18,728 nucleotides of DNA. It comes from a virus (taxonomy: Duplodnaviria > Heunggongvirae > Uroviricota > Caudoviricetes). The stretch is taken from the IMG/VR virus record IMGVR_UViG_2654588181_000008, positions 1-18,728 of that record; one strand, written 5' to 3'. This document shows positions 1,449-17,794 of this stretch, piece after piece. Positions within the stretch are counted from its first letter, which is position 1. Each line of letters starts with the position of its first letter. The position numbers and the translations under genes are program-made. Under the pieces are notes generated by a model, which did not search any database, had not been told where the DNA came from, and was given only the letters and a program-made list of their open reading frames with translations.

Positions 1449-2105
1449 CTATTTAACATACTTGACTGTTAAACTTATAATTTTACCAATTATTTCAATG
1501 TCTTCTATCTTGCATTCGAAGGCTCTGTTTCCACCCTCGACGAAGATTCTTCCACCGGGTAAACGAGTAATGTCACGGATCGTTATTTCGCCATCAATAC
1601 TTATTACCCATTTACCATCACGTATATCATCAAATTCTTTATCACAAATAAATTCAGAATTGTTATCTGTGATGACAAAAGGTTTTTTAAACGTAGAGGG
1701 TAGAAATTCCTTATCAAAAATATAAAAACCGTCTTTCTGCAATGCTCCATCAGACAATAAATATTTTTCTACTTCTATAGTATTTGTATTTGCTGATGCT
1801 TGCTTTGAACCATGCCCTGTTGTTAGCCAATTAAGCGAGGTGCCCGTTTCAAGGGCGCACTGGATTACCCAATCTGCTGGAAAAATATCACGCATATAGC
1901 GCGTTGCCATGGTGCTCTTAGAAACACCTAAATGATCACAGAGAGCCTGACGGGTACCGAACCCATATGCTTCAACTAAACGTTCTATGGCTTTCTTACC
2001 GCCGCTATTGAAATCCACAAGTCCTCCAAAGAAATCCAAAATTCGTTGACAGATTCCAAAAGCGATCTTAAAGTTGAACCAGAAGTGTTCTTTTGGAGCC
2101 TTCAC
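1449..2105 (-). CDS. cI: Immunity repressor, 186 CI-like
   Basis: Position and orientation (between int and apl, leftward) plus a helix-turn-helix-like segment GTRQALCDHLGVSKSTMATRYMRD. The ORF-track start at 2105 is GTG; the true start may lie further inside. Confidence 0.6.
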   Translation of the reverse strand: MKAPKEHFWFNFKIAFGICQRILDFFGGLVDFNSGGKKAIERLVEAYGFGTRQALCDHLGVSKSTMATRYMRDIFPADWVIQCALETGTSLNWLTTGHGSKQASANTNTIEVEKYLLSDGALQKDGFYIFDKEFLPSTFKKPFVITDNNSEFICDKEFDDIRDGKWVISIDGEITIRDITRLPGGRIFVEGGNRAFECKIEDIEIIGKIISLTVKYVK

Positions 2106-4232: not shown

Positions 4233-5086
4233 GCACCATCCTGAAATGGGCGGGAAATAAAACCGCCGTAATGTCCGAACTGAAAAAACATCTTCCAGCT
4301 GGCCCGCGACTGGTTGAACCTTTCGCGGGTTCCTGTGCTGTGATGATGGAGACGGATTATCCCAGCTATCTGGTTGCGGATATTAATCCTGATTTAATCA
4401 ACCTCTATAAAAAGGTTGCCGCTGATTGTGAATCGTTTATATCTCGCGCCAGAGTTTTATTTAAGGAAGCAAACAGGGAGGTGGCTTATTACAACATAAG
4501 GCAGGAGTTTAATTACTCAACTGAAATTACTGATTTCATGAAAGCGGTATATTTCCTGTATCTCAATCGTCACGGTTACCGTGGGTTATGTCGCTATAAC
4601 AAGAGCGGGCATTTCAACATTCCCTACGGTAATTATAAAAATCCGTATTTCCCTGAAAAAGAAATTCGCGCATTTGCAGAGAAAGCCCAACGAGCAACGT
4701 TTATCTGCGCCAGCTTTGATGAAACGCTGGCGATGTTGAAGGCGGGGGATGTGGTGTATTGCGATCCGCCGTATGACGGTACGTTTTCCAGCTATCACAC
4801 TGATGGTTTCACTGAAGATGACCAGTATCACCTGGCATCCGTTCTTGAACATCGGTCATCAGAAGGACATCCGGTCATTGTTTCTAACAGTGACACATCC
4901 CTGATCCGTTCGCTGTATCGCAATTTTACTCACCACTACATCAAGGCAAAACGCAGCATCGGCGTAGCAGCTGGTGAGAGTAAATCTGCAACAGAAATCA
5001 TCGCTGTTTCTGGGGCGCGCTGCTGGGTGGGATTTGATCCTTCGCGTGGCGTGGATAGTTCTGCCGTGTACGGAGTGCGTGCATGA
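4229..5086 (+). CDS. dam: DNA adenine methyltransferase, Dam (GATC) family
   Basis: [35 protein letters not shown] and VVYCDPPY motifs, near-colinear with E. coli Dam as I recall it. ATG 4229 with GGAGG upstream and ATGA overlap with the preceding ORF; the track start at 4169 is an upstream extension. Confidence 0.9.
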
Positions 5087-7497
5087 GCCATGCTGATATG
5101 AACAACTGCAGCGGCTTTAACGAGGCCGCCGCAGCATTCTCATGGAACAGCCCGAAAAAGGCGATTAACCCTTATCTGGACCCGGCGGAAGTTGCGCCGG
5201 TTTCTGCGCTTTCAAACCTGATCACTCTGTACGCTGCCGATAACAAGCAGGAACAACTGCGCCGCGAGGCACTGAGTGATCAGGTCTGGGAGCGTTATTT
5301 CTTTAATGAATCCCGTGATCCTGTCCAGCGCGAAATGGAGCAGGATAAGCTCATTAGCCGGGCAAAGCTGGTGCATGAGCAGCAGCGTTTTAATCCGGAC
5401 ATGGTCATACTGGCGGACGTTAACGCCCAGCCTTCCCATATCAGCAAGCCGCTGATGCAACGTATTGAATACTTCAGCAGCCTGGGCAGGCCAAAGGCTT
5501 ATTCCCGCTATTTGCGTGAGACGATTAAACCATGTCTGGAACGACTGGAGCATGTACGCGACAGCCAGCTATCTGCATCTTTTCGTTTTATGGCAAGCCA
5601 TGAAGGGCTGGACGGCCTGCTGATCTTGCCTGAAATGAGTCAGGATCAGGTGAAGCGCCTGTCTACCCTTGTTGCCGCGCATATGAGCATGTGCCTTGAT
5701 GCAGCTTGTGGTGATTTGTATGCCACCGATGACGTTAAGCCAGAAGAAATCCGCAAGACATGGGAAAGGGTGGCGGCGGAAACCCTGCGTCTGGATGTCA
5801 TCCCTCCTGCGTTTGAGCAACTCCGCCGGAAAAGAAACCGCCGTAAACCCGTACCCTATGAACTCATTCCGGGTTCGCTGGCGCGTATGTTGTGCGCCGA
5901 CTGGTGGTATCGGAAATTATGGAAGATGCGTTGCGAATGGCGGGAAGAGCAGTTGCGTGCTGTTTGCCTGGTCAGCAAAAAAGCATCTCCCTATGTCAGC
6001 TATGAAGCCGTGATGCATAAACGTGAGCAGCGCCGTAAGTCGCTGGAGTTTTTCCGTTCTCATGAACTGGTGAACGAAGACGGCGACACGCTGGATATGG
6101 AGGACGTGGTAAACGCCAGTAGTAGCAACCCGGCGCATCGCCGCAATGAGATGATGGCATGTGTTAAAGGTCTGGAGCTTATCGCGGAAATGCGCGGTGA
6201 CTGCGCCGTTTTCTACACCATCACCTGTCCGTCACGTTTCCATTCCACGCTAAATAACGGCAGGCCCAACCCGACTTGGACAAATGCGACGGTAAGACAA
6301 AGCAGTGATTATCTGGTCGGCATGTTTGCTGCATTTCGTAAGGCGATGTACAAAGCCGGATTGCGCTGGTATGGCGTGCGGGTGGCTGAGCCGCATCATG
6401 ACGGTACAGTTCACTGGCACCTGTTGTGTTTTATGCGCAAAAAAGATCGCCGCGCCATTACTGCTTTGTTGCGTAAGTTTGCCATTCGTGAAGACCGCGA
6501 GGAGCTGGGTAATAACACAGGACCACGCTTTAAGTCTGAGCTGATAAACCCGCGCAAAGGTACACCAACAAGCTACATCGCGAAATACATCAGTAAGAAC
6601 ATTGACGGGTGTGGTCTGGCTGGCGAGATCAGCAAGGAAACGGGTAAATCTCTGCGTGATAACGCTGAATACGTTAATGCCTGGGCGTCTCTGCATCGTG
6701 TTCAGCAATTCCGCTTCTTTGGCATTCCGGGGCGTCAGGCTTACCGTGAACTGCGATTGCTGGCTGGTCAGGCGGCAAGGCAACAGGGTGACAAAAAAGC
6801 AGGTGCGCCGGTACTGGATAACCCGCGCCTTGATGCCATTCTGGCTGCAGCTGATGCTGGTTGCTTTGCCACCTACATCATGAAGCAGGGCGGCGTACTG
6901 GTTCCCCGTAAATATCACCTCATCAGAACCGCTTATGAAATCAACGAAGAGCCGACCGCCTATGGCGATCACGGTATTCGTATTTATGGCATCTGGTCAC
7001 CCATTGCAGAGGGCAAGATCTGCACTCATGCAGTGAAGTGGAAAATGATCCGTAAAGCCGTTGACGTTCAGGAGGCGGCAGCCGACCAGGGCGCTTGCGC
7101 CCCTTGGACTCGTGGCAATAACTGTCCCCTTGCTGAAAATTTGAACCAACAAGGGAAAGACAAATCAGCTGATGGGGACTCCATAACGGATATTACCCGT
7201 ATGAATGACAAGGAGTTGCACGATTACCTGCACAGTATGAGCAAAAAAGAGCGCCGGGAACTGGCTGCAAGGTTACGCCAGGTGAAACCGAAACGGCGTA
7301 AAGACTACAAACAGCGAATTACAGACCATCAGCGACAGCAGCTCGTCTATGAGCTGAAGTCCAGGGGATTTGATGGCAGCGAGAAAGAAGTCGATTTGCT
7401 CCTTCGCGGCGGCAGTATTCCGTCAGGAGCAGGCCTGCGTATCTTCTATCGGAACCAGCGTCTGAAGGAAGATGATAAGTGGCGGAACCTGTATTAA
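5083..7497 (+). CDS. A: Replication initiation protein A (rolling-circle endonuclease, P2 gpA family)
   Basis: 804-aa ORF containing [17 protein letters not shown] and a catalytic-tyrosine region typical of P2 gpA-like proteins; ATGA overlap with dam at 5083-5086. Confidence 0.9.
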
Positions 7498-7566: not shown

Positions 7567-7609
7567 TTTACATCAGTAAGATTATTATATACTGTAAATA
7601 TAAACAGTA
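7567..7609 (+). promoter_or_regulatory. SOS-regulated promoter: sigma70-like -35 TTTACA (7567-7572) with a LexA box TACTGTAAATATAAACAGTA (7590-7609) over the -10 region
   Basis: Perfect CTGT-N8-ACAG dyad with an AT-rich spacer, 40 bp upstream of a strong AGGAGG ribosome-binding site and ATG 7650. Confidence 0.7.
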
Positions 7610-7649
7610 GTTATGCATACAGTATTGTTTTGGTGTCATAGGAGGAAAG

Positions 7650-7838
7650 ATGCAGGACTATTTTTTGGAGTCTTTGAAGCTCCAGCGCATTGATTTTTTT
7701 CTTAAGCTTGTAGCGGCTAGTGAGTGTAGTGATGAAGAGAAGGGGCTGGCTCTGCAGTGGGTTTCTGAACTGACAGATGAACTCATGGCAAAAATCAGAA
7801 GCCACGAATACAACCGCTCAATGGATGTCATCAGCTGA
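7650..7838 (+). CDS. SOS-controlled small protein, possibly the N-terminal part of a Tum-like antirepressor
   Basis: AGGAGG 4 nt upstream of ATG 7650; 62 aa; directly downstream of the LexA box and 10 nt before the DinI-like gene. Confidence 0.55.
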   Translation: MQDYFLESLKLQRIDFFLKLVAASECSDEEKGLALQWVSELTDELMAKIRSHEYNRSMDVIS

Positions 7839-7848
7839 GGTGACTTTT

Positions 7849-8082
7849 ATGCGCATTGAAATAATGATCGATAAAGAGCAGAAGATTAGCCAGTCTACCC
7901 TGGACGCCCTTGAATCCGAGCTTTACCGCAATCTGCGCCCCCTGTATCCCAAAACGGTAATTCGCATTCGCAAAGGTAGCTCTAACGGTGTGGAACTAAC
8001 CGGACTGCAACTGGATGAAGAAAGAAAACAAGTGATGAAAATTATGCAGAAGGTGTGGGAGGACGACAGCTGGCTGCATTAA
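7849..8082 (+). CDS. DinI-like protein (DinI/MsgA family)
   Basis: MRIEIMIDKEQKISQSTLDALESELYRNL...QKVWEDDSWLH aligns by eye with E. coli DinI (MRIEVTIAK...DALAGELSRR...QETWESADDW). GAGGTG upstream of ATG 7849. Confidence 0.8.
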   Translation: MRIEIMIDKEQKISQSTLDALESELYRNLRPLYPKTVIRIRKGSSNGVELTGLQLDEERKQVMKIMQKVWEDDSWLH

Positions 8083-8090
8083 GAAACGTT

Positions 8091-8126
8091 GCCCCCAGGA
8101 GGATTCATTCTGATGGGGGCTAGTTT
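8091..8126 (+). terminator. Putative hairpin terminator after the DinI-like gene
   Basis: GCCCCCA (8091-8097) and TGGGGGC (8114-8120) form a 7-bp GC stem with a 16-nt loop, followed by TAGTTT; the T tract is weak. Confidence 0.3.
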
Positions 8127-8488
8127 GGGTAACGAGTGAAACGAGGCGTAAGGTGGGCGGCCATTTTGATAAGTGATTGTACGATTTGTGTTGTGAGTTC
8201 AACGGGTCGATGCAACGCTATCCTTAATCAAGGGCACGTTGCTCATACCCATCGATGCAATGAAAATCCATACTCATGGGGAAGACCAGAATGTCCCTGC
8301 CTTTTTCATTTTGTTCAGCACATGCACTATGGCCATTGCCTTCCCAAGCTAGCTATCGTAATCACTCAGCGTCAGTAAACTACTGAAAAATTGTTTTACC
8401 TTGTATATCAATAATGCCAAATCATACCCAAAAAATAGAAAATAATTAGATCGACAGGCAGAAGGCAATGTGAATAATCTTAAAAACC

Positions 8489-8518
8489 TTGACTGCCAGT
8501 GAGGTTTGGTTCTATAAA
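8489..8518 (+). promoter_or_regulatory. Putative sigma70 promoter for darTG (TTGACT-N18-TATAAA)
   Basis: TTGACT at 8489-8494 and TATAAA at 8513-8518, about 30 nt upstream of the darT start. Confidence 0.4.
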
Positions 8519-8549
8519 TAGACTTACGACTTTGAAAGGATGAGTTGAA

Positions 8550-9131
8550 ATGAGCGAAAGGAAAAGAATTGAAGATCAGTATCTTCTCTATCATTTAACA
8601 TGTATGGATAATCTACCTAGTATTTTAGACACAGGATTAAGATCTCGTGCATCAGTAAAAGGTGAGTTTGTTGATGTGGCCGACGGTGAAATAATAACAG
8701 GACGCGAAGCATTAAATTTGCAAACAATGGTTCCTTTTCATTTCTTTACTAAGAATCCATTTGATGGAAGAGTCCTGAAAGATCATAAGGAAAAATCATT
8801 TTGTATTATTTCGGTTTGTCGGGCATTTGCCAAAGAAAATGGTTGGAAAGTTATCCCTAAACATCCATTATCCACCAGTTCTGTTATAGACCTCTTAGAT
8901 TATGAACAAGGAATGGCCCAAATTGACTGGGAGCTTATGAATATAAGGGATTATAAAAATGCAGAATGCAAATCTGTATGTATGGCTGAGTGTTTATCAA
9001 GTGTAACGGTCGAGCCGAAAAATTTCCATTGCATCTTTGTCAAAAATGATAACGAAAAAAAATATGTTGAAAGGTTGATAAAACAACAAGGATTAAGTAT
9101 ATTGATAACGATCAACACTTATATGTTCTAA
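8550..9131 (+). CDS. darT: DarT-like ssDNA ADP-ribosyltransferase toxin (DUF4433 family)
   Basis: N-terminal LLYHLTCMDNLPSILDTGLRS matches the DarT/DUF4433 signature (LYHxTh..NL.SIL..GL) as I recall it; a C-terminal AECL segment is a candidate for the catalytic glutamate. 193 aa, AT-rich, directly followed by a macrodomain gene. Confidence 0.8.
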   Translation: MSERKRIEDQYLLYHLTCMDNLPSILDTGLRSRASVKGEFVDVADGEIITGREALNLQTMVPFHFFTKNPFDGRVLKDHKEKSFCIISVCRAFAKENGWKVIPKHPLSTSSVIDLLDYEQGMAQIDWELMNIRDYKNAECKSVCMAECLSSVTVEPKNFHCIFVKNDNEKKYVERLIKQQGLSILITINTYMF

Positions 9132-9135
9132 TTCT

Positions 9136-10107
9136 ATGATTAAGTATGCAAGCGGAAATCTTCTAAACTCTACATCGCAAGCTCTTGTGAATGCTGTAAA
9201 CTGCCAAGGAGTCATGGGAAAGGGTATCGCTTTGGCTTTTAAAGAAACTTTTCCCTATAATTTCGAAGTTTATAAGAGAGCATGCGCCACTGGTACAATG
9301 AAAATTGGACAGGTTTTAATTGTAGAGGAAAAGGGAAAAATAATTGTAAACTTTCCCACTAAAGATAGTTGGAGAAAAAAATCAACATATGATTTCATCT
9401 CGCAAGGCCTTGAATCTTTAGCAAAAATTATAGACGAAAAAAAAATTACATCAATATCAATACCACCTTTAGGCTGTGGTAATGGGGGCCTCGATTGGAA
9501 TAAGGTTGAGGCTCTTATTTTAAAAACTTTTCAAAATTTAGATAATGTTGATGTGGTAATTTATCCGCCTGCAACTAACAATCAACTTTCAAAAAATAAA
9601 AATGTTATTAATGCTAAGCATCTTTTGGTTCACTACGCCTATGGAAAATTAAAAGTTAAGCAAAAATATTCCCTTTATACAGTTTTTTATATTTGCGAAT
9701 GTATTGAGAAAGCAAATCTTTTTTTATTCGATTTTAAACATGGTCGGCCATACTCTTCTGAGTTAGAAAATATTATGAAGGATATAGCAAACCTTAAAGT
9801 TGAGTTGCAAGGAGATTTTGATGCTTTTATTGAAGATTATATTAATACTCATCAATCCAAAGAGTTACAAACCGAGTTTGGTAAACTAATCTCAACTTTA
9901 AATCCAAGTATAAGTTTGCTCAATGCTCTTAAAAATAAGATTGATTATACAGATAGCGTATATGTGATTACGAGAATTGCTAAAGAAAAAGATCATGGCT
10001 TGCATATTGACAATTTCAAAGAATATGAAAATATTGTGCAGCATTTAATTAAAAATGGATTGGTAATCGAAGATATTTTTAACGAACTAAAAATAAAGGG
10101 AAGTTAG
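9136..10107 (+). CDS. darG: DarG-like antitoxin: N-terminal macrodomain (ADP-ribosyl hydrolase) plus C-terminal domain
   Basis: GNLLNSTSQALVNAVNCQGVMGKGIALAFKETFP and PPLGCGNGGLDW are classic macrodomain motifs; starts 4 nt after darT. 323 aa. Confidence 0.8.
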   Translation: MIKYASGNLLNSTSQALVNAVNCQGVMGKGIALAFKETFPYNFEVYKRACATGTMKIGQVLIVEEKGKIIVNFPTKDSWRKKSTYDFISQGLESLAKIIDEKKITSISIPPLGCGNGGLDWNKVEALILKTFQNLDNVDVVIYPPATNNQLSKNKNVINAKHLLVHYAYGKLKVKQKYSLYTVFYICECIEKANLFLFDFKHGRPYSSELENIMKDIANLKVELQGDFDAFIEDYINTHQSKELQTEFGKLISTLNPSISLLNALKNKIDYTDSVYVITRIAKEKDHGLHIDNFKEYENIVQHLIKNGLVIEDIFNELKIKGS

Positions 10108-10777: not shown

Positions 10778-11842
10778 ATGGCAGAGAATGGCCCTATTGA
10801 AGACTTAGCAAAACGCATTTCTAACGATCTTATGAGTCGTTTTAAGTGGCAACAGCATGGCCCCTGTGACCAAGATTTCTCTTGTGATAATGAAACAAAA
10901 CATAAGCCTGAAGGTAAAAAACAAAAGCACACACACCCAGTGGATGTGGTATTTAGTTATAAAGATCCATATTTAAATAAAATTATTTATTTAAATACTG
11001 ATTTGAAAAGTTATAAGGCTGGTTCTATTAATGCAACAAAGATAGAGTCTGCATTAGAGTCTTTAGCAAAAACAATTGATTGTGCTCGATATAGCCAGGA
11101 ATGGTCAGAAAAATATAACTTTTCTCAAATTGATTTCGAAGTTCGAGGTTTATTATTTGTTTTTAATCATGATAATCAATTGCAACATGATTTTTATGAT
11201 TTCTTTAATCCTCCTAAACCTACTAAAGGAAGGAGAGATAAGGCTGTAAACTTAGAAAAGATTCCGTTATGTGCTGGTCAGCAAATTCATATAATTGATC
11301 CATTTCTTATTAATTATATGTTGGCAGTAACGAATGATATGAATGACTTAATTGCAAAAAAAGAATTTCCAGATGAGGATTATGGATTCTATTATCCTCA
11401 ACTTATTTTCCATAAGGTTGCTGTAACTGAAAAATACCTTCCTGCAACTATTGAAGTTTTGTTATCACCATTTATGATTATTAAACATGGTCCTGTTTAT
11501 AAATTCAATAGGGCTAAAGGTATTGAGGAAATGGTTTATCCAGAGGGATTTGTTATATATTACAATAGAAAAGGTAATAGCGATAATGAATTCTTTTATT
11601 TGCTAGACTTGCTTTCTAATTATCAAATTTTAGATGGTATAAATAAAATTAGAATAAGATTGGCGTATCGTGAGAAAGATAATAGAGTTATGTCGCATTT
11701 TCAGCGTGGGATCGAAAAGTATGTTCATGAGTATGGACTGGATGAAGAGGCTAAAAAGAGACTTGAAGATCTGGATGTCAAAGTTGTCTCTACTGTAAAA
11801 GAATTCTTTTCTTCTGAGGTTATTTCTTGGGAGCCGAAATGA
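10778..11842 (+). CDS. Unknown protein A of three-gene cargo operon (354 aa); possible PD-(D/E)xK-type nuclease motif near the N-terminus
   Basis: ATG 10778 with AAGGAA Shine-Dalgarno. HPVDVVF...IIYLNTDLK fits the hhhD-x(n)-(D/E)xK pattern. No Walker A and no transmembrane segment. Stop overlaps the next start as ATGA. Confidence 0.8.
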   Translation: MAENGPIEDLAKRISNDLMSRFKWQQHGPCDQDFSCDNETKHKPEGKKQKHTHPVDVVFSYKDPYLNKIIYLNTDLKSYKAGSINATKIESALESLAKTIDCARYSQEWSEKYNFSQIDFEVRGLLFVFNHDNQLQHDFYDFFNPPKPTKGRRDKAVNLEKIPLCAGQQIHIIDPFLINYMLAVTNDMNDLIAKKEFPDEDYGFYYPQLIFHKVAVTEKYLPATIEVLLSPFMIIKHGPVYKFNRAKGIEEMVYPEGFVIYYNRKGNSDNEFFYLLDLLSNYQILDGINKIRIRLAYREKDNRVMSHFQRGIEKYVHEYGLDEEAKKRLEDLDVKVVSTVKEFFSSEVISWEPK

Positions 11843-12903
11843 AAAATATTCATAGTGTAACTGACAAGGCTTTATGTGATGCTTTGAATCAAAAGCAGAT
11901 TACATTAAATGAAATACAGGATCTTTTCTTGGAAAGAGGTACTATTATTTGTAAAAAAACCCCTAGAAAAGATCTAGCCAAAAACTACTCTCGGATGACT
12001 CATGATTATTATGAACATCAGAAGATAGCAACATTACTCGGAGGTCAGACAAGAGCTGAAAAAAATACATGTGTAAGAATTGAATCTAGTGTCACTAAGG
12101 ACGATATCATAGTGGCAGCAGAGAAGTTAAAAAAAGAAATAACTGCTCAGGATGATTATTGTAAAATTATTATTGATGGTTCTCGAGTTCTTATAGATAT
12201 AAGATATCTATCGACCAATTATAGTAAAAGCGATTTTAAGCAGGCTGTAAATAAAGAAGCTTTAATTGAAATCGAGCCTATTGATAAAGGTTATAGCATC
12301 CGTCGTCCCGATAACGAGAATCTCAAAGATTATGAAGATCTCCTCCTCGGGCATATAATTTCGATTCAGAGTGAACAAGATAATGACAGTAATCTTGATT
12401 TAAAATTAAACGAAATTACTCTTGCTCATAATAGCTCCGCAGATGTTAGGACACTGTTTTTCGATAAATTAATCCGTAGCCTAGATGGATATGAATTAGA
12501 CGATGTTACGGATGCTTATGTATATCATCCAAAACCTGAAACAATAGAAGCAGAAGAGGGAAATACTGAAACTGGAGTTCATGTGTCAAAAGCATCTCTG
12601 AAAGGAGAGGGAGTTCTTAAATCTGATGAACTTAGTGATCTTTATGATAGGGGCTTTTATATCTGGAAAATAAAATGGAAGGTTAAAGAGAAACTAGCAG
12701 ACCCAGATATTTATGAACTCGAAGCTCAATTCGGAGATCCACTAAACTGTACTAATTTTTCATATTTAGTAAAAGGAGTGAAAAAATATAAGTCTAACGG
12801 TCAATATTTCAGTAAACCTCAAAAGCTTTCAGCTAGAGAAACCGATAGATTTAATAAATTAATTGAAAATAGAGCTTATTCTATTATAATGGAAATTAGC
12901 TAA
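11839..12903 (+). CDS. Unknown protein B of three-gene cargo operon (354 aa)
   Basis: ATG 11839 with GGGAG 5 nt upstream, coupled to gene A by the ATGA overlap (track start 11827 is TTG). No recognisable motifs; acidic and soluble. Confidence 0.8.
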   Translation: MKNIHSVTDKALCDALNQKQITLNEIQDLFLERGTIICKKTPRKDLAKNYSRMTHDYYEHQKIATLLGGQTRAEKNTCVRIESSVTKDDIIVAAEKLKKEITAQDDYCKIIIDGSRVLIDIRYLSTNYSKSDFKQAVNKEALIEIEPIDKGYSIRRPDNENLKDYEDLLLGHIISIQSEQDNDSNLDLKLNEITLAHNSSADVRTLFFDKLIRSLDGYELDDVTDAYVYHPKPETIEAEEGNTETGVHVSKASLKGEGVLKSDELSDLYDRGFYIWKIKWKVKEKLADPDIYELEAQFGDPLNCTNFSYLVKGVKKYKSNGQYFSKPQKLSARETDRFNKLIENRAYSIIMEIS

Positions 12904-12922
12904 TTCATCATAAGGAGTGGAT

Positions 12923-13618
12923 ATGTCACAGTTAAGATTAAAGTGGATGAGATTAAAGATCAGAACCAGTTCTGAAGCGATCTTTGATTTTATCAAAAAC
13001 ACCCCTTATTCTGATGCTATTGGTGCTGGTTTTACTAAGTTTGAAACTATTCACAATGGAATATCTGCGACTTTTAATAAAAAAACTATAATGTTGGAGC
13101 CAGTTTCTGATCCATTTGGTGATATTTTAGAGTTCGAAAGGATTGTTTTTGAACAGATTGGTTTTTCTATCCAAACATTAAGTAATAAATTATGTTTGTT
13201 GACTTTTTATAATCCTCCAAAGACAGTTAAGTCTTTTATTGATTTCTTGTCAAAAGGTGAAGGGGTAAATGTTGCCTATGGAAACTTGACGGTAGATCTC
13301 AAGGCTTTTATGAAAATAATTAGGGAGGAGTTTGGAGTCAAAGTCTTCGCCATCTCAAAGGTGAAAGTTTCAAATGTTCCTGTTACTGATAAAACAAGGG
13401 CGTGTTTAGAGCTGAATTCTAGTGGAGATGCTCTAAATGATTTGAAAAAATTTGTTTTGGATAATGATTTTAAACTCGATAAAATAAAAGTTGGGGGGCT
13501 ATATCATGACTCTAAATTTAGCTTTGAACTAACTAGTGGAGCCTCGGCAATAATTCCTGAAGAACATGTGTCGGTCTTTAATGATGCTATTTCTTATATG
13601 GAGCTTGCTAAATTTTAA
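12923..13618 (+). CDS. Unknown protein C of three-gene cargo operon (231 aa)
   Basis: ATG 12923 with AAGGAG 7 nt upstream (track start 12917 is GTG); 19 nt after gene B; followed by a strong hairpin terminator. Confidence 0.8.
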   Translation: MSQLRLKWMRLKIRTSSEAIFDFIKNTPYSDAIGAGFTKFETIHNGISATFNKKTIMLEPVSDPFGDILEFERIVFEQIGFSIQTLSNKLCLLTFYNPPKTVKSFIDFLSKGEGVNVAYGNLTVDLKAFMKIIREEFGVKVFAISKVKVSNVPVTDKTRACLELNSSGDALNDLKKFVLDNDFKLDKIKVGGLYHDSKFSFELTSGASAIIPEEHVSVFNDAISYMELAKF

Positions 13619-13665: not shown

Positions 13666-14316
13666 TTAGTTTATATCGTCAAATGTATATTTCATAAATT
13701 GCATGACATGGTCGCCTATCCATTCGTTTAGTTCTTTAATTCTTTGTTGTAGAGGCGTTAACTCATTACGTACAAAGACACGGCTTGCCTTCTCCACATC
13801 CCCAAAACCCCCAACATTATTAGGCATTATCCCCATCATCTGTGGCGGAACGCGATGTGCTGCCATCATGTCATCGCGGCTGACATTTTTGATATTCAGA
13901 AACTCATCCTTCGCCGCAACTTCTGACAAAGGGATGATCTGAAGGCCGTCCTTTTTGCCGTTAGGCGAGTACATAAACAGGTTGCGGAAGTTGCCTGGAC
14001 CTTTGGCGCTTTTCATCGCGTTGCGGAGGTTGTTCACGTCCTCCTGGTTCTGCGCAGCGTCGGTCATGTACATGATGAAGCCAGCATGACTGCCGTTAAT
14101 GTAATACTTTCGACGGAACAGCGTGGCAGACTCATTGAGCAGGGCGGACGGAATGGCAGAAAGATAGCCGGGCAGGCCGTAGATCTCCTGGTTAATGTCC
14201 GGTTCCATCAGATGAAAAATGCTGCCTTTCGTGAACTGATACGGCTGGGTTGTCATACCGTATTGCACAAACCAGTAGGTATTGCCTTCTGGATCACTCG
14301 TAACCAGATGGCGCAA
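13666..14316 (-). pseudogene. Q: Portal protein (P2 gpQ-like) remnant, N-terminally truncated
   Basis: 216-aa minus-strand ORF; the portal assignment rests mainly on position and orientation (first late gene, leftward, as in P2), and intact P2 Q is about 340 aa. No ATG start: the first in-frame codon is TTG, and it abuts the lysB start with an 11-nt gap. Confidence 0.55.
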
Positions 14317-15950: not shown

Positions 15951-15996
15951 AACAAAAAACCCATCAACCTTGAACCGAAATGGCGGGGTTGATGGG
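15951..15996 (-). terminator. Rho-independent terminator of ybjL
   Basis: CCCATCAACC (15960-15969) pairs with GGTTGATGGG (15987-15996); an A run on the plus strand at 15951-15959 gives a T run after the hairpin on the minus strand, downstream of ybjL. Confidence 0.5.
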
Positions 15997-16108
15997 CTCC
16001 ACAAAATGGGGACATCAAAGAAAAGCAGTGGCACTAATTAAGACTGATGCCCTGCGGAAAAGTTCTGCGGTTGTGCAAAAAAATTTCATTTTCAGGGCAA
16101 CTTCAGTT

Positions 16109-17794
16109 TTATCCTAATCCTGGCCATACCATGACGATGATTGTCCCTGCCAGCGTCAGCAGGACGTTGGCGATTGCATAGGTGCCCGCATAGCCCAGCG
16201 CCGGGATGTTACTGCGAGCTGTATCACTGATGATCTCCATTGCCGGCGCGCAGGTACGTGCGCCCATCATTGCGCCGAACAACAGTGCGCGGTTCATTCG
16301 CAATACATAAGCACCGAACAAGAAACAGATAACCACGGGCACCAGACTGACAATCAATCCGGCAATCAACATCTGACCGCCAATCGCGCCCAGGCCGTTA
16401 TTAATACCGCTACCGGCGCTCAGACCAACGCCTGCCATAAACACCATCAAGCCGAACTCTTTCACCATGCTTAATGCACCTTGCGGAATGTAACCGAAGG
16501 TCGGGTGGTTAGCACGCATAAAGCCCAGCATAATTCCGGCGAATAACAACCCGGCAGCGTTCCCCATGCCGAAACTGAATGTGCTGAACTGGAAGGTGAT
16601 CATCCCGATCATCAGCCCAATAACAAAGAAGGCGCAAAATGCCAGCAGGTCAGTGACCTGGCTGTGAATCGAGATAAAGCCGATGCGATCGGCGATGGTT
16701 TTTACGCGACGGGCATCACCGCTGACTTGTAAAACGTCACCTTTGTTAAGCACGACGTTGTCATCTATCGGCATCTCAATCTGGCTACGAATGACGCGGT
16801 TAAGGAAGCAACCGTGATCGGTCAACTTCAGTTGTGCGAGACGTTTACCTACAGCGTTATGGTTTTTAACGACCACTTCTTCAGTGACGATACGCATGTC
16901 GAGAAGGTCACGATCGAAAACTTCTTTACCGTTACGGAAGCTGGGATCGAGTCGGGCATGGGCGTCGGGATAGCCTACCAACGCTATTTCATCGCCCATT
17001 TGTAGCACGGCATCACCGTCTGGATTTGCCAGAATCCCGTTACGTCGAATACGTTCAATGTAGCAGCCGGTTTGTCGATAAATACCCAGTTCACGCAGAT
17101 TTTTGCCGTCGGTCCAGGCCACCAGCTCCGGGCCGACGCGATAGGCGCGGATCACCGGTAAATAAACCTTACGGTTGGCATCAGTGTCCAGGCCACGTTC
17201 GCGGGCGATTTGCTGGGCGCTGGTCTGTAAGTCCTGATGCTGCAATTTCGGCAAGTAACGCGCACCAACAATCAAACTCACCAGACCGATTAAATAGGTT
17301 AAGGCATACCCGAGGCTCAGATTATCCAGTGCCAGTGAGAGCTGCCTGCTTTCCATGCCGGAATGACGCAGTGTATCGCCAGCACCGACCAGAACCGGTG
17401 TCGACGTCATAGAGCCTGCTAACATACCGGCCGTCAGGCCAATATCCCAGCCAAACAGCTTACCTAACCCTAAGGCGATCACCAGCGCACTGCCAACCAT
17501 CACCAGTGCTAACATTAGGTAATTTTTCCCATCGCGAAAAAAAATGGAAAAAAAGTTCGGTCCGGCTTCGACCCCGACGCAGAAAATAAACAGCATAAAG
17601 CCAAGATTAAGCGCATCGGTGTTAATGCTGAAATGTTGTTGGCCTAATAACAGCGATACGACTAAAACGCCAATGGAATTACCCAGTTGGATCGAACCAA
17701 GTCGTAACTTTCCGAGACATAGCCCAAGCGCGAGGACCACAAATAATAACAGAATGTAATTCCCATTTAACAATTCGGCGACGTTTATATTCAC
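16109..17794 (-). CDS. ybjL: Putative transport protein YbjL (two-domain membrane transporter with central TrkA-C-like domains)
   Basis: 561-aa polytopic membrane protein beginning [29 protein letters not shown]..., recognised as E. coli YbjL; GTG start. Confidence 0.85.

Follow-up and report, generated by a model that had tools for sequence, protein, structure and literature searches.

The SOS switches closest to the locus analysed here have been described in the P2-like phages 186, PSP3 and Fels-2 and in a prophage of E. coli HS. In coliphage 186 the switch is the p95 operon, composed of tum, t95a, orf97 and t95b. Its annotated promoter has the arrangement TTCACA-18-TACTGT, and a LexA box begins at the -10 hexamer. 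Tum of 186 is one polypeptide of 146 aa in which an antirepressor N-terminal region is followed by a DinI-like region, and internal starts also yield the DinI-like part alone. The basis cited in PMC3121763 for Tum binding the CI repressor and blocking operator binding is Shearwin et al. 1998. The same paper describes that tum is split by a stop codon in Fels-2 and PSP3, attributes the antirepressor activity of PSP3 to the upstream gene (personal communication), and cites Bunny et al. 2002 for the tie between Fels-2 and lexA-null lethality. In the annotation of PSP3 the two parts are named tumA (60 aa, 'similar to 5' end 186 tum; UV induction of prophage') and tumB (77 aa, 'similar to dinI and 3' end of 186 tum'), and STM2726.1 of Fels-2 is annotated as similar to 'TumB [PsP3]'.

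More recently, the 'Phollow' study of 2025 (PMC12055606) investigated DuoHS, the P2-like prophage of E. coli HS, and found that mitomycin C no longer caused lysis in a delta-tum or a lexA(Ind-) strain. Its supplementary table gives tum as ECHS_RS04495, which in the HS genome is a 62-aa 'hypothetical protein' 10 nt 5' of the DinI-like ECHS_RS04500. A more distant parallel is found in Gifsy-type prophages with GfoA/GftA (PMC3121763), where a LexA-repressed operon also encodes a DinI homologue together with a small antirepressor, and the repressor is likewise non-cleavable. There, however, dinI precedes the antirepressor gene, the phage is of the lambdoid type, and neither the antirepressor nor the repressor belongs to a related family.

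Results

Prophage setting of the locus

The window, by which we mean the whole analysed stretch of 18,728 nucleotides, is a P2/186-like prophage (Peduoviridae, Fels-2-like), and its features are collected in Table 1. The tum module lies directly 3' of gene A, the same position as in 186, PSP3 and Fels-2. The prophage also encodes a CI of the 186 type, presumably the protein on which TumA acts, with 33% identity to the CI of 186. Pfam detects no significant Peptidase_S24 autocleavage domain in it, the S24 match being below threshold. The CI of E. coli HS, against which a TumA identical to that of the window was tested, is only 87% identical to the window CI, and the differences are in the N-terminal part.

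The prophage is a deletion remnant when compared with intact relatives. About 6.7 kb are missing at ~14281, comprising the remainder of the portal gene and the terminase, capsid and lysis genes, and about 11.7 kb with the tail genes are missing at ~15171. With head, tail and lysis genes lost, the SOS output here would be early-gene expression only and no phage. Downstream of the tum module, darT-darG (8550-10107) is the first cargo of the gpA-to-Q hotspot and is on the same strand as the tum operon. The cargo consists of DarTG and three ORFs matching the PADLOC models Hp1, Hp2 and Hp3. Prophages with different cargo stay homologous to the window up to ~8200-8216, and the G+C content falls from ~48% to ~33% near 8300. 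An 80-aa ORF at 8136-8378 was treated as non-coding, as it has no family match and PGAP left it unannotated in an identical genome.

Table 1. Positions of the features discussed in the text, numbered from the first letter of the window.
Feature	Coordinates	Strand	Evidence and remarks
CI repressor, 186-type	1449-2018	minus	Pfam Phage_CI_repr and Phage_CI_C
Replication gene A (gpA)	5083-7497		Pfam Phage_GPA, 1.5e-126
p_tum promoter (predicted)	7567-7595	plus	-35 TTTACA (7567-72), 17-nt spacer, -10 TACTGT (7590-95)
LexA (SOS) box (predicted)	7590-7609		TACTGTAAATATAAACAGTA; overlaps the -10 hexamer; 18/20 to consensus TACTGTATATATATACAGTA
tumA, 62 aa	7650-7838	plus	Shine-Dalgarno AGGAGG (7640-45)
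tumB, 77 aa	7849-8082	plus	Shine-Dalgarno GAGGTG (7837-42), overlapping the tumA stop codon (7836-38)
RNA element (predicted)	8080-8152	plus	Stem-loop 8084-8126 followed by the 3' motif AACGAG-N-CGAGGCGTAAG; no U-tract
Promoter-like site 5' of darT	8451-8478	plus	TCGACA-16-AATAAT, 10/12, consensus match only
darT	8550-9131	plus	Pfam DarT; PADLOC DarT, 1.3e-36
darG	9136-10107	plus	Pfam Macro; PADLOC DarG, 1.6e-79

The LexA box and its promoter

The initial annotation had placed a perfect LexA box over a promoter at this site, and our results bear this out: the site, predicted from its sequence, has a perfect and unique core. The core CTGT-N8-ACAG (7592-7607) has a single copy in the 18.7-kb window, where 0.22 would be expected by chance, and sites with at most three mismatches to the LexA consensus were found in 0 of 200 shuffles. 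The promoter has the build of the annotated p95 of phage 186, in that the left arm of the LexA box doubles as its -10 hexamer, TACTGT. It matches the consensus at 8 of 12 positions and was therefore missed by a generic promoter scan with a threshold of 9/12.

The comparison with related loci shows which parts of this arrangement are kept. Of 43 loci, 27 have TTTACA upstream of TACTGT at a distance of exactly 17 nt, and 34 have TT[TC]ACA at a distance of 16-18 nt. Across more than 40 loci the -35 hexamer, its distance from the -10 and the arms of the box are kept, and the sequence of the 17-nt spacer is free to differ. This pattern is a clean phylogenetic footprint of a putative LexA-occluded promoter. 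Every TumA-like ORF examined in 8 phage records has a LexA box 5' of it, and in the survey described below the box is located 20-77 nt 5' of every TumA-like ORF. Of 34 species loci, 27 have a perfect LexA core, and in 33 the core deviates at no more than one position.

TumA and TumB

Behind the promoter, the initial annotation had seen a 62-aa ORF and, 10 nt on in another frame, a 77-aa DinI-like ORF. The coordinates and the Pfam DinI match confirm this pair: the gap between tumA and tumB is exactly 10 nt and tumB is in the +1 frame. It had also suggested an alignment of both ORFs with 186 Tum, which succeeds directly for the 77-aa ORF (41% identity to residues 71-145, E 3e-24), whereas the 62-aa ORF has no similarity to 186 Tum or PSP3 TumA by BLASTP and is connected to Tum by profiles.

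The 62-aa ORF belongs to phrog_698 (6e-38), a stand-alone PHROG of 63 positions, and neither Pfam nor NCBIfam has a family for it. It cross-matches phrog_8554 (1e-8), the family of a Yersinia 'tum protein', and reaches an E-value of 0.002 against phrog_1993, the PSP3 TumA family. Residues 1-70 of 186 Tum match the same three families (phrog_1993 at 1.5e-23, phrog_8554 at 3.4e-12 and phrog_698 at 5.9e-6), and its residues 6-44 align in register on positions 6-44 of phrog_698. An hhalign comparison of the ORF62 family with the N-termini of 186, ENT90 and PSP3 gives an E-value of 8.6e-6 and a probability of 83%, with residues 5-47 on 5-48. A joint TumA alignment forms a continuum via ESSI-2-like and Yersinia phages, with a shared core of R-I/V-D/E-hydrophobic..., a conserved Cys and then ...AL.W/L-I/V-S/A-E-L. 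AlphaFold2 predicts a two-helix hairpin (helices 2-23 and 28-61, pLDDT 90), the turn of which holds the conserved Cys; no solved structure was matched by sequence. Homology of the 62-aa ORF to the N-terminus of 186 Tum is thus supported at profile level only (E ~1e-5 to 1e-6), together with synteny.

The link to function is provided by E. coli HS. The 62-aa ORF is 100% identical to ECHS_RS04495 and 97% identical to the Fels-2 protein, and the deletion primers of PMC12055606 match the window at ~7633-7652 and ~7836-7858. As ECHS_RS04495 is the gene that was deleted as 'tum', the 62-aa ORF corresponds to an experimentally defined antirepressor gene that was already known.

TumB has clear matches to the DinI family (Pfam DinI 6.6e-23; DinI structure PDB 1GHH 2.7e-6) and is 78% identical to TumB of PSP3. 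Against the DinI equivalog model of NCBIfam, NF007893, it scores 42.7 bits, below the cut-off of 111, which makes it a member of the DinI family only. DinI is a protein that binds RecA filaments. TumB and the chromosomal DinI of E. coli (1GHH) have the fold family and SOS control in common, but TumB is phage-borne and coupled to an antirepressor.

The nearest relatives of the module are the Fels-2 pair STM2728/STM2726.1 and the HS pair, which have the promoter, the LexA box, the 62-aa ORF, the 10-nt gap and the 77-aa ORF in common with the window. They also lie directly after gene A, and their DNA is 96-97% identical. The same 0.6 kb is found at this level of identity in RE2010, many Klebsiella P2-like phages and several E. 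coli phages. PSP3 shares the split Tum, the LexA box and the position after gene A with the window, but its TumA belongs to phrog_1993 and its two ORFs are in frame and 3 nt apart. The module of 186 has in common with the window the LexA box as -10 region, the position after gene A, the 186-type CI, the order of the antirepressor and DinI-like regions and a downstream gene in the operon. A single polypeptide of about 146 aa as in 186 is not encoded here, as the stop codon at 7836-38 and the change of frame separate the two parts. What the window does have is the ORF layout of a split Tum, a LexA box on the promoter at sequence level and a site after gene A in company with a 186-type CI.

For the taxonomic distribution we surveyed 35 species-representative genomes from genera including Escherichia, Citrobacter, Enterobacter, Klebsiella, Raoultella, Pantoea, Erwinia, Tatumella and Serratia, in which the loci were found from a narrower TumA alignment. 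Nearly all of them encode an intact TumA of about 62 aa. In 20 of the 35 genomes tumA is followed after 8-12 nt by a DinI-like ORF, which is truncated in 4 of these 20; the other 15 lack it. ESSI-2, ENT90, YenM_324 and ESSI2_ev015 have a LexA box and a TumA-like ORF after gene A and no DinI-like gene. As judged from this distribution, TumA is the constant part of the module and TumB an accessory.

Two explanations for the separate ORFs compete with a naturally bipartite Tum. The initial annotation had considered a frameshifted tum, in which case the pair would be a broken pseudogene of the 146-aa gene of 186. The summed length of 62 and 77 aa does come close to 146 aa, an open stretch of 24 codons precedes the tumB ATG in the +1 frame, and the rest of the window prophage is degraded. 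Nevertheless, 1629 of 5426 complete E. coli genomes have the two-ORF layout, as do 56 phage records at a coverage of at least 80% and about 20 other species. Both ORFs come with a Shine-Dalgarno sequence of their own, the 62-aa family forms a PHROG by itself, the four phages named above have TumA-like ORFs lacking a DinI part, and the identical protein is functional in E. coli HS. We therefore reject the broken gene, the probability of which we consider negligible. A programmed frameshift or stop read-through could instead produce a TumA-TumB fusion as the active antirepressor. This reading can draw on PSP3, whose ORFs are in one frame and separated by the stop codon and one codon, on the +1 frame of the window, which is open across the junction, and on the HS deletion, which would remove any such fusion too. 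It is highly implausible all the same: there is no slippery motif at 7777-7838, the gap varies between 8 and 12 nt, and tumA stays intact where tumB is truncated (4 loci) or absent (15 of 35). Among the 20 species loci with both genes, the relative frames 0, 1 and 2 are used in 6, 5 and 9, and with all three in use no single recoding event could be conserved. The variable frame and the frequent absence of tumB effectively rule out both the broken gene and the programmed frameshift. The naturally bipartite Tum, the other option of the initial annotation, is supported by the conserved layout, the homology of TumB and TumA and the identity to HS 'tum', and it is already published.

A conserved RNA element behind tumB

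The initial annotation had noted a weak hairpin at 8091-8120 as a possible terminator. The hairpin itself stands, with a GC core of 7 bp in which GCCCCCA (8091-97) pairs with TGGGGGC (8114-20), but it is larger than described: the stem extends to 8084-8126, with a folding energy of -20.4 kcal/mol and a z-score of -2.3. Its interpretation as a terminator is not supported, since it has no U-tract and is crossed in relatives, as discussed below.

Most relatives have a long stem-loop directly 3' of the last stop codon of the tum operon, followed by GGTTGAACAACGAG-N5-6-CGAGGCGTTAG. In an alignment of 40 distinct copies, 93.6% of the cells of a 14-bp helix can pair, compared with 79% in shuffles, and 0 of 500 shuffles reached the observed value. 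Cells with changes on both sides of a pair number 94, where 24.7 are expected, and the covariation score is 0.57 compared with 0.08-0.17 in slid controls. G-U pairs outnumber A-C mismatches by 51 to 6, an excess which places the constraint on the plus-strand, tum-sense RNA. A covariance model scores the window copy (8080-8152) at 66.9 bits (E 2.7e-18) and detects the element in 24 of the 35 species loci, in 186 and twice in PSP3; with the same model it is absent from Fels-2 and HS. The window copy and the canonical copies have no match in Rfam. The hairpin is part of a conserved and covarying, apparently undescribed RNA element of about 74 nt on the sense strand. In 186, PSP3 and most Fels-2-like prophages this element forms the end of the tum SOS operon, and it lies at the upstream boundary of the gpA-to-Q defence hotspot. 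Fels-2 and HS differ from the window in this region, as they have a canonical terminator-like hairpin and then a 243-aa ORF where the window has the element and then darTG.

Two other roles were considered for the region and set aside. A sigma-70 promoter inside the element, with TTGAAC as -35, has no acceptable -10 at 16-18 nt. A single-strand replication origin is unlikely, as DuoHS is an inducible and infectious phage without the element.

An intrinsic terminator of the tum operon would suit a stable, G+C-rich stem directly after the last stop codon, and at a roughly equivalent place canonical terminator-like hairpins are present in Fels-2, E. coli HS and 186. The tail of the hairpin is, however, UAGUUUGGG in the window and GGUUGAAC in relatives, without a U-run in either, and the terminator scan, which found no canonical terminator-like site between 8083 and 8549, did not flag it. 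In about 30 related loci the GAGG at the 3' end of the element is the Shine-Dalgarno sequence of an 85-88-aa ORF (phrog_2100) beginning 8 nt further on, and it is only behind this translatable ORF that a strong canonical terminator is found. In 186 the element likewise lies after orf97 and before t95b, the annotated terminator of the p95 transcript. An ORF that can be expressed in relatives only by crossing the hairpin argues that the hairpin is no efficient terminator, and we regard the terminator reading as quite improbable. With no terminator-like site in 8083-8549, SOS transcripts may plausibly enter the spacer, and the initial annotation had raised the possibility of transcription directed toward darTG. 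Transcripts from the SOS promoter would then cross the hairpin, continue for about 470 nt into darT-darG and increase DarTG after damage. The missing U-tract, the crossing of the hairpin in the roughly 30 loci with a Shine-Dalgarno sequence inside the element, the position of the 186 element before t95b and the orientation of darT all point in this direction, as does the SOS operon of 186, which includes the cargo-like orf97 behind only a partial terminator. On the other hand, darT has a promoter-like site of its own (Table 1), and the 467-nt untranslated spacer contains a stretch with more C than G (8225-8450), so that a Rho site is possible and Rho-dependent termination favoured. Cargo elsewhere can face the opposite strand, as in strain C21, and term searches of two papers on the hotspot yielded no mention of tum, LexA or SOS. 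Expression of the cargo from the SOS promoter is plausible on this evidence, though less likely than not.

As to the function of the element, we would guess, with low confidence, that it serves the processing or stability of the SOS transcript. A wider scenario, in which the element serves processing or stability (e.g. as an RNase III site) or anti-termination, LexA-controlled transcripts enter the cargo, and DarTG-type defences are SOS-inducible, seems unlikely to us.

Discussion

We consider it very probable that 7567-8082 represents the naturally split version of the SOS operon carried by Fels-2/186-type P2-like prophages. In an undamaged cell LexA would occupy the box over the -10 hexamer and block the promoter. 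After DNA damage RecA would become active, LexA would cleave itself and the promoter would fire, giving one mRNA with two tightly coupled cistrons and hence TumA and TumB. TumA would then bind the non-cleavable 186-type CI and stop its binding to the operators, so that the early lytic operon would be derepressed. The need for both this gene, in a form identical to that of the window, and a cleavable LexA for mitomycin-C induction was described for E. coli HS (PMC12055606). We infer the direct binding of TumA to CI from the homology with 186 Tum. TumB would be an accessory modulator of the SOS signal and not the switch itself. It probably modulates RecA/SOS, by analogy with the annotation of the truncated DinI-like Tum forms of 186. 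The module is the already known and published SOS switch of Fels-2/186-type prophages, ordinary and nothing new in itself.

The identification does have a use for annotation. The unnamed 62-aa 'hypothetical protein' is the Tum antirepressor, and it could be so annotated in about 30% of complete E. coli genomes. For the window prophage, being defective, the tum module may be free of selection for induction. Since the switch is kept in a prophage that is incapable of making particles, DNA damage would derepress only early functions, beside two defence systems.

The switch borders the main P2 defence hotspot on its upstream side, and the only thing between it and the cargo is a conserved RNA hairpin that does not appear to be a terminator. 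This arrangement makes an SOS coupling of the defence genes directly testable. If SOS transcripts do enter the cargo, this would make hotspot defences such as DarTG SOS-inducible.

A conserved RNA element behind the tum operon

A conserved RNA element lies behind the tum operon. Further copies occur in coliphage 186 and twice in PSP3 (see table), and the element is also present in 24 of the 35 species-representative loci (L014-L048). It has a 14-bp stem with covariation, and its bias towards G-U over A-C indicates that the sense strand is the relevant one. The element lacks a U-tract, and no Rfam family was found for it. In many relatives it is followed by an ORF of 85-88 aa (MGSKDSNYQ...; phrog_2100), and 3' of this ORF we find a conserved region of GCATG repeats together with a strong terminator, GGCCCGCCAG-N4-CTGGCGGGCTTTT. 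The commonest variant has no such ORF, and the RNA element directly adjoins the GCATG region.

Features with their coordinates (window positions unless a locus is named)
Feature	Position	Strand	Remarks
Half LexA-like site ATACAGTAT	7616-7625		7 nt past the full LexA box
Small hairpin GTCATC-N6-GGTGAC, then TTTTAT	7827-7844		flagged as terminator-like by scan
RNA element, ~74 nt	8080-8152	tum sense	directly 3' of the last tum operon stop codon
RNA element, 186	L001 6340-6413		between orf97 and t95b, the annotated p95-transcript terminator
RNA element, PSP3	L003 5551-5624, 5956-6029		two copies
phrog_2100 ORF in relatives	L060 2489-2746; L074 1242-1508; L024 3508-3768; L033 3504-3761		examples; others too
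Hp1	10778-11842	+	PADLOC model match 1.2e-64
Hp2	11827-12903	+	PADLOC model match 1.6e-39
Hp3	12917-13618	+	PADLOC model match 1.1e-10
RybB sRNA	15951-16029	-	Rfam RF00110, 105 bits

Possible control, and decay, within the operon

The small hairpin at the tumA-tumB junction (-7.8 kcal/mol, z -2.0) takes in the stop codon of tumA as well as the Shine-Dalgarno sequence of tumB. Judged from this arrangement, translation of tumB could require ribosomes to complete tumA. In four species-representative loci (L017, L028, L030 and L046) premature stops cut tumB short, and yet tumA and its LexA box are intact in all four.

The half LexA-like site is kept in E. coli HS and Fels-2, and in the MAFFT alignment it falls under the right arm of the LexA boxes of 186 and PSP3. 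A hand count over the complete 20-mer containing it gives 7 mismatches, so that the site is probably a relic.

When the window is compared with E. coli HS, TumA is 100% identical, whereas CI, its presumed target (window 1449-2018, minus strand; HS locus L005 18703-19269), is 87% identical. The CI differences are confined to residues 1-120, with no change in 121-189.

The prophage remnant and its cargo

By its sequence the window prophage is a remnant left by deletions. The joint at ~14281 connects a portal fragment (13666-14316, minus strand) to the lysB/gpR region, and gpR is in turn fused to the 3' end of gpD at ~15171. Compared with prophage DuoHS of E. coli HS and with strain Br_178_kylling, ~6.7 kb are missing at the former joint and ~11.7 kb at the latter, and another 349 bp beside the 3' end of the integrase gene (42-44). 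RybB lies just beyond the right prophage end, beside a ybjL-type permease gene (16109-17794). In E. coli HS, too, the prophage is flanked by rcdA and ybjL.

The tumB-darT junction is found in ten E. coli genomes, including strain 2022CK-00450 (NZ_CP104681.1), in which the match is in two pieces and an IS1A transposase is among the features under it. The three ORFs 3' of darG have no match in Pfam. We take them to be, probably, the three-hypothetical-protein system (Rst_3HP) known from P2 hotspots. If this identity is true, they would represent a second defence system within the darTG island.
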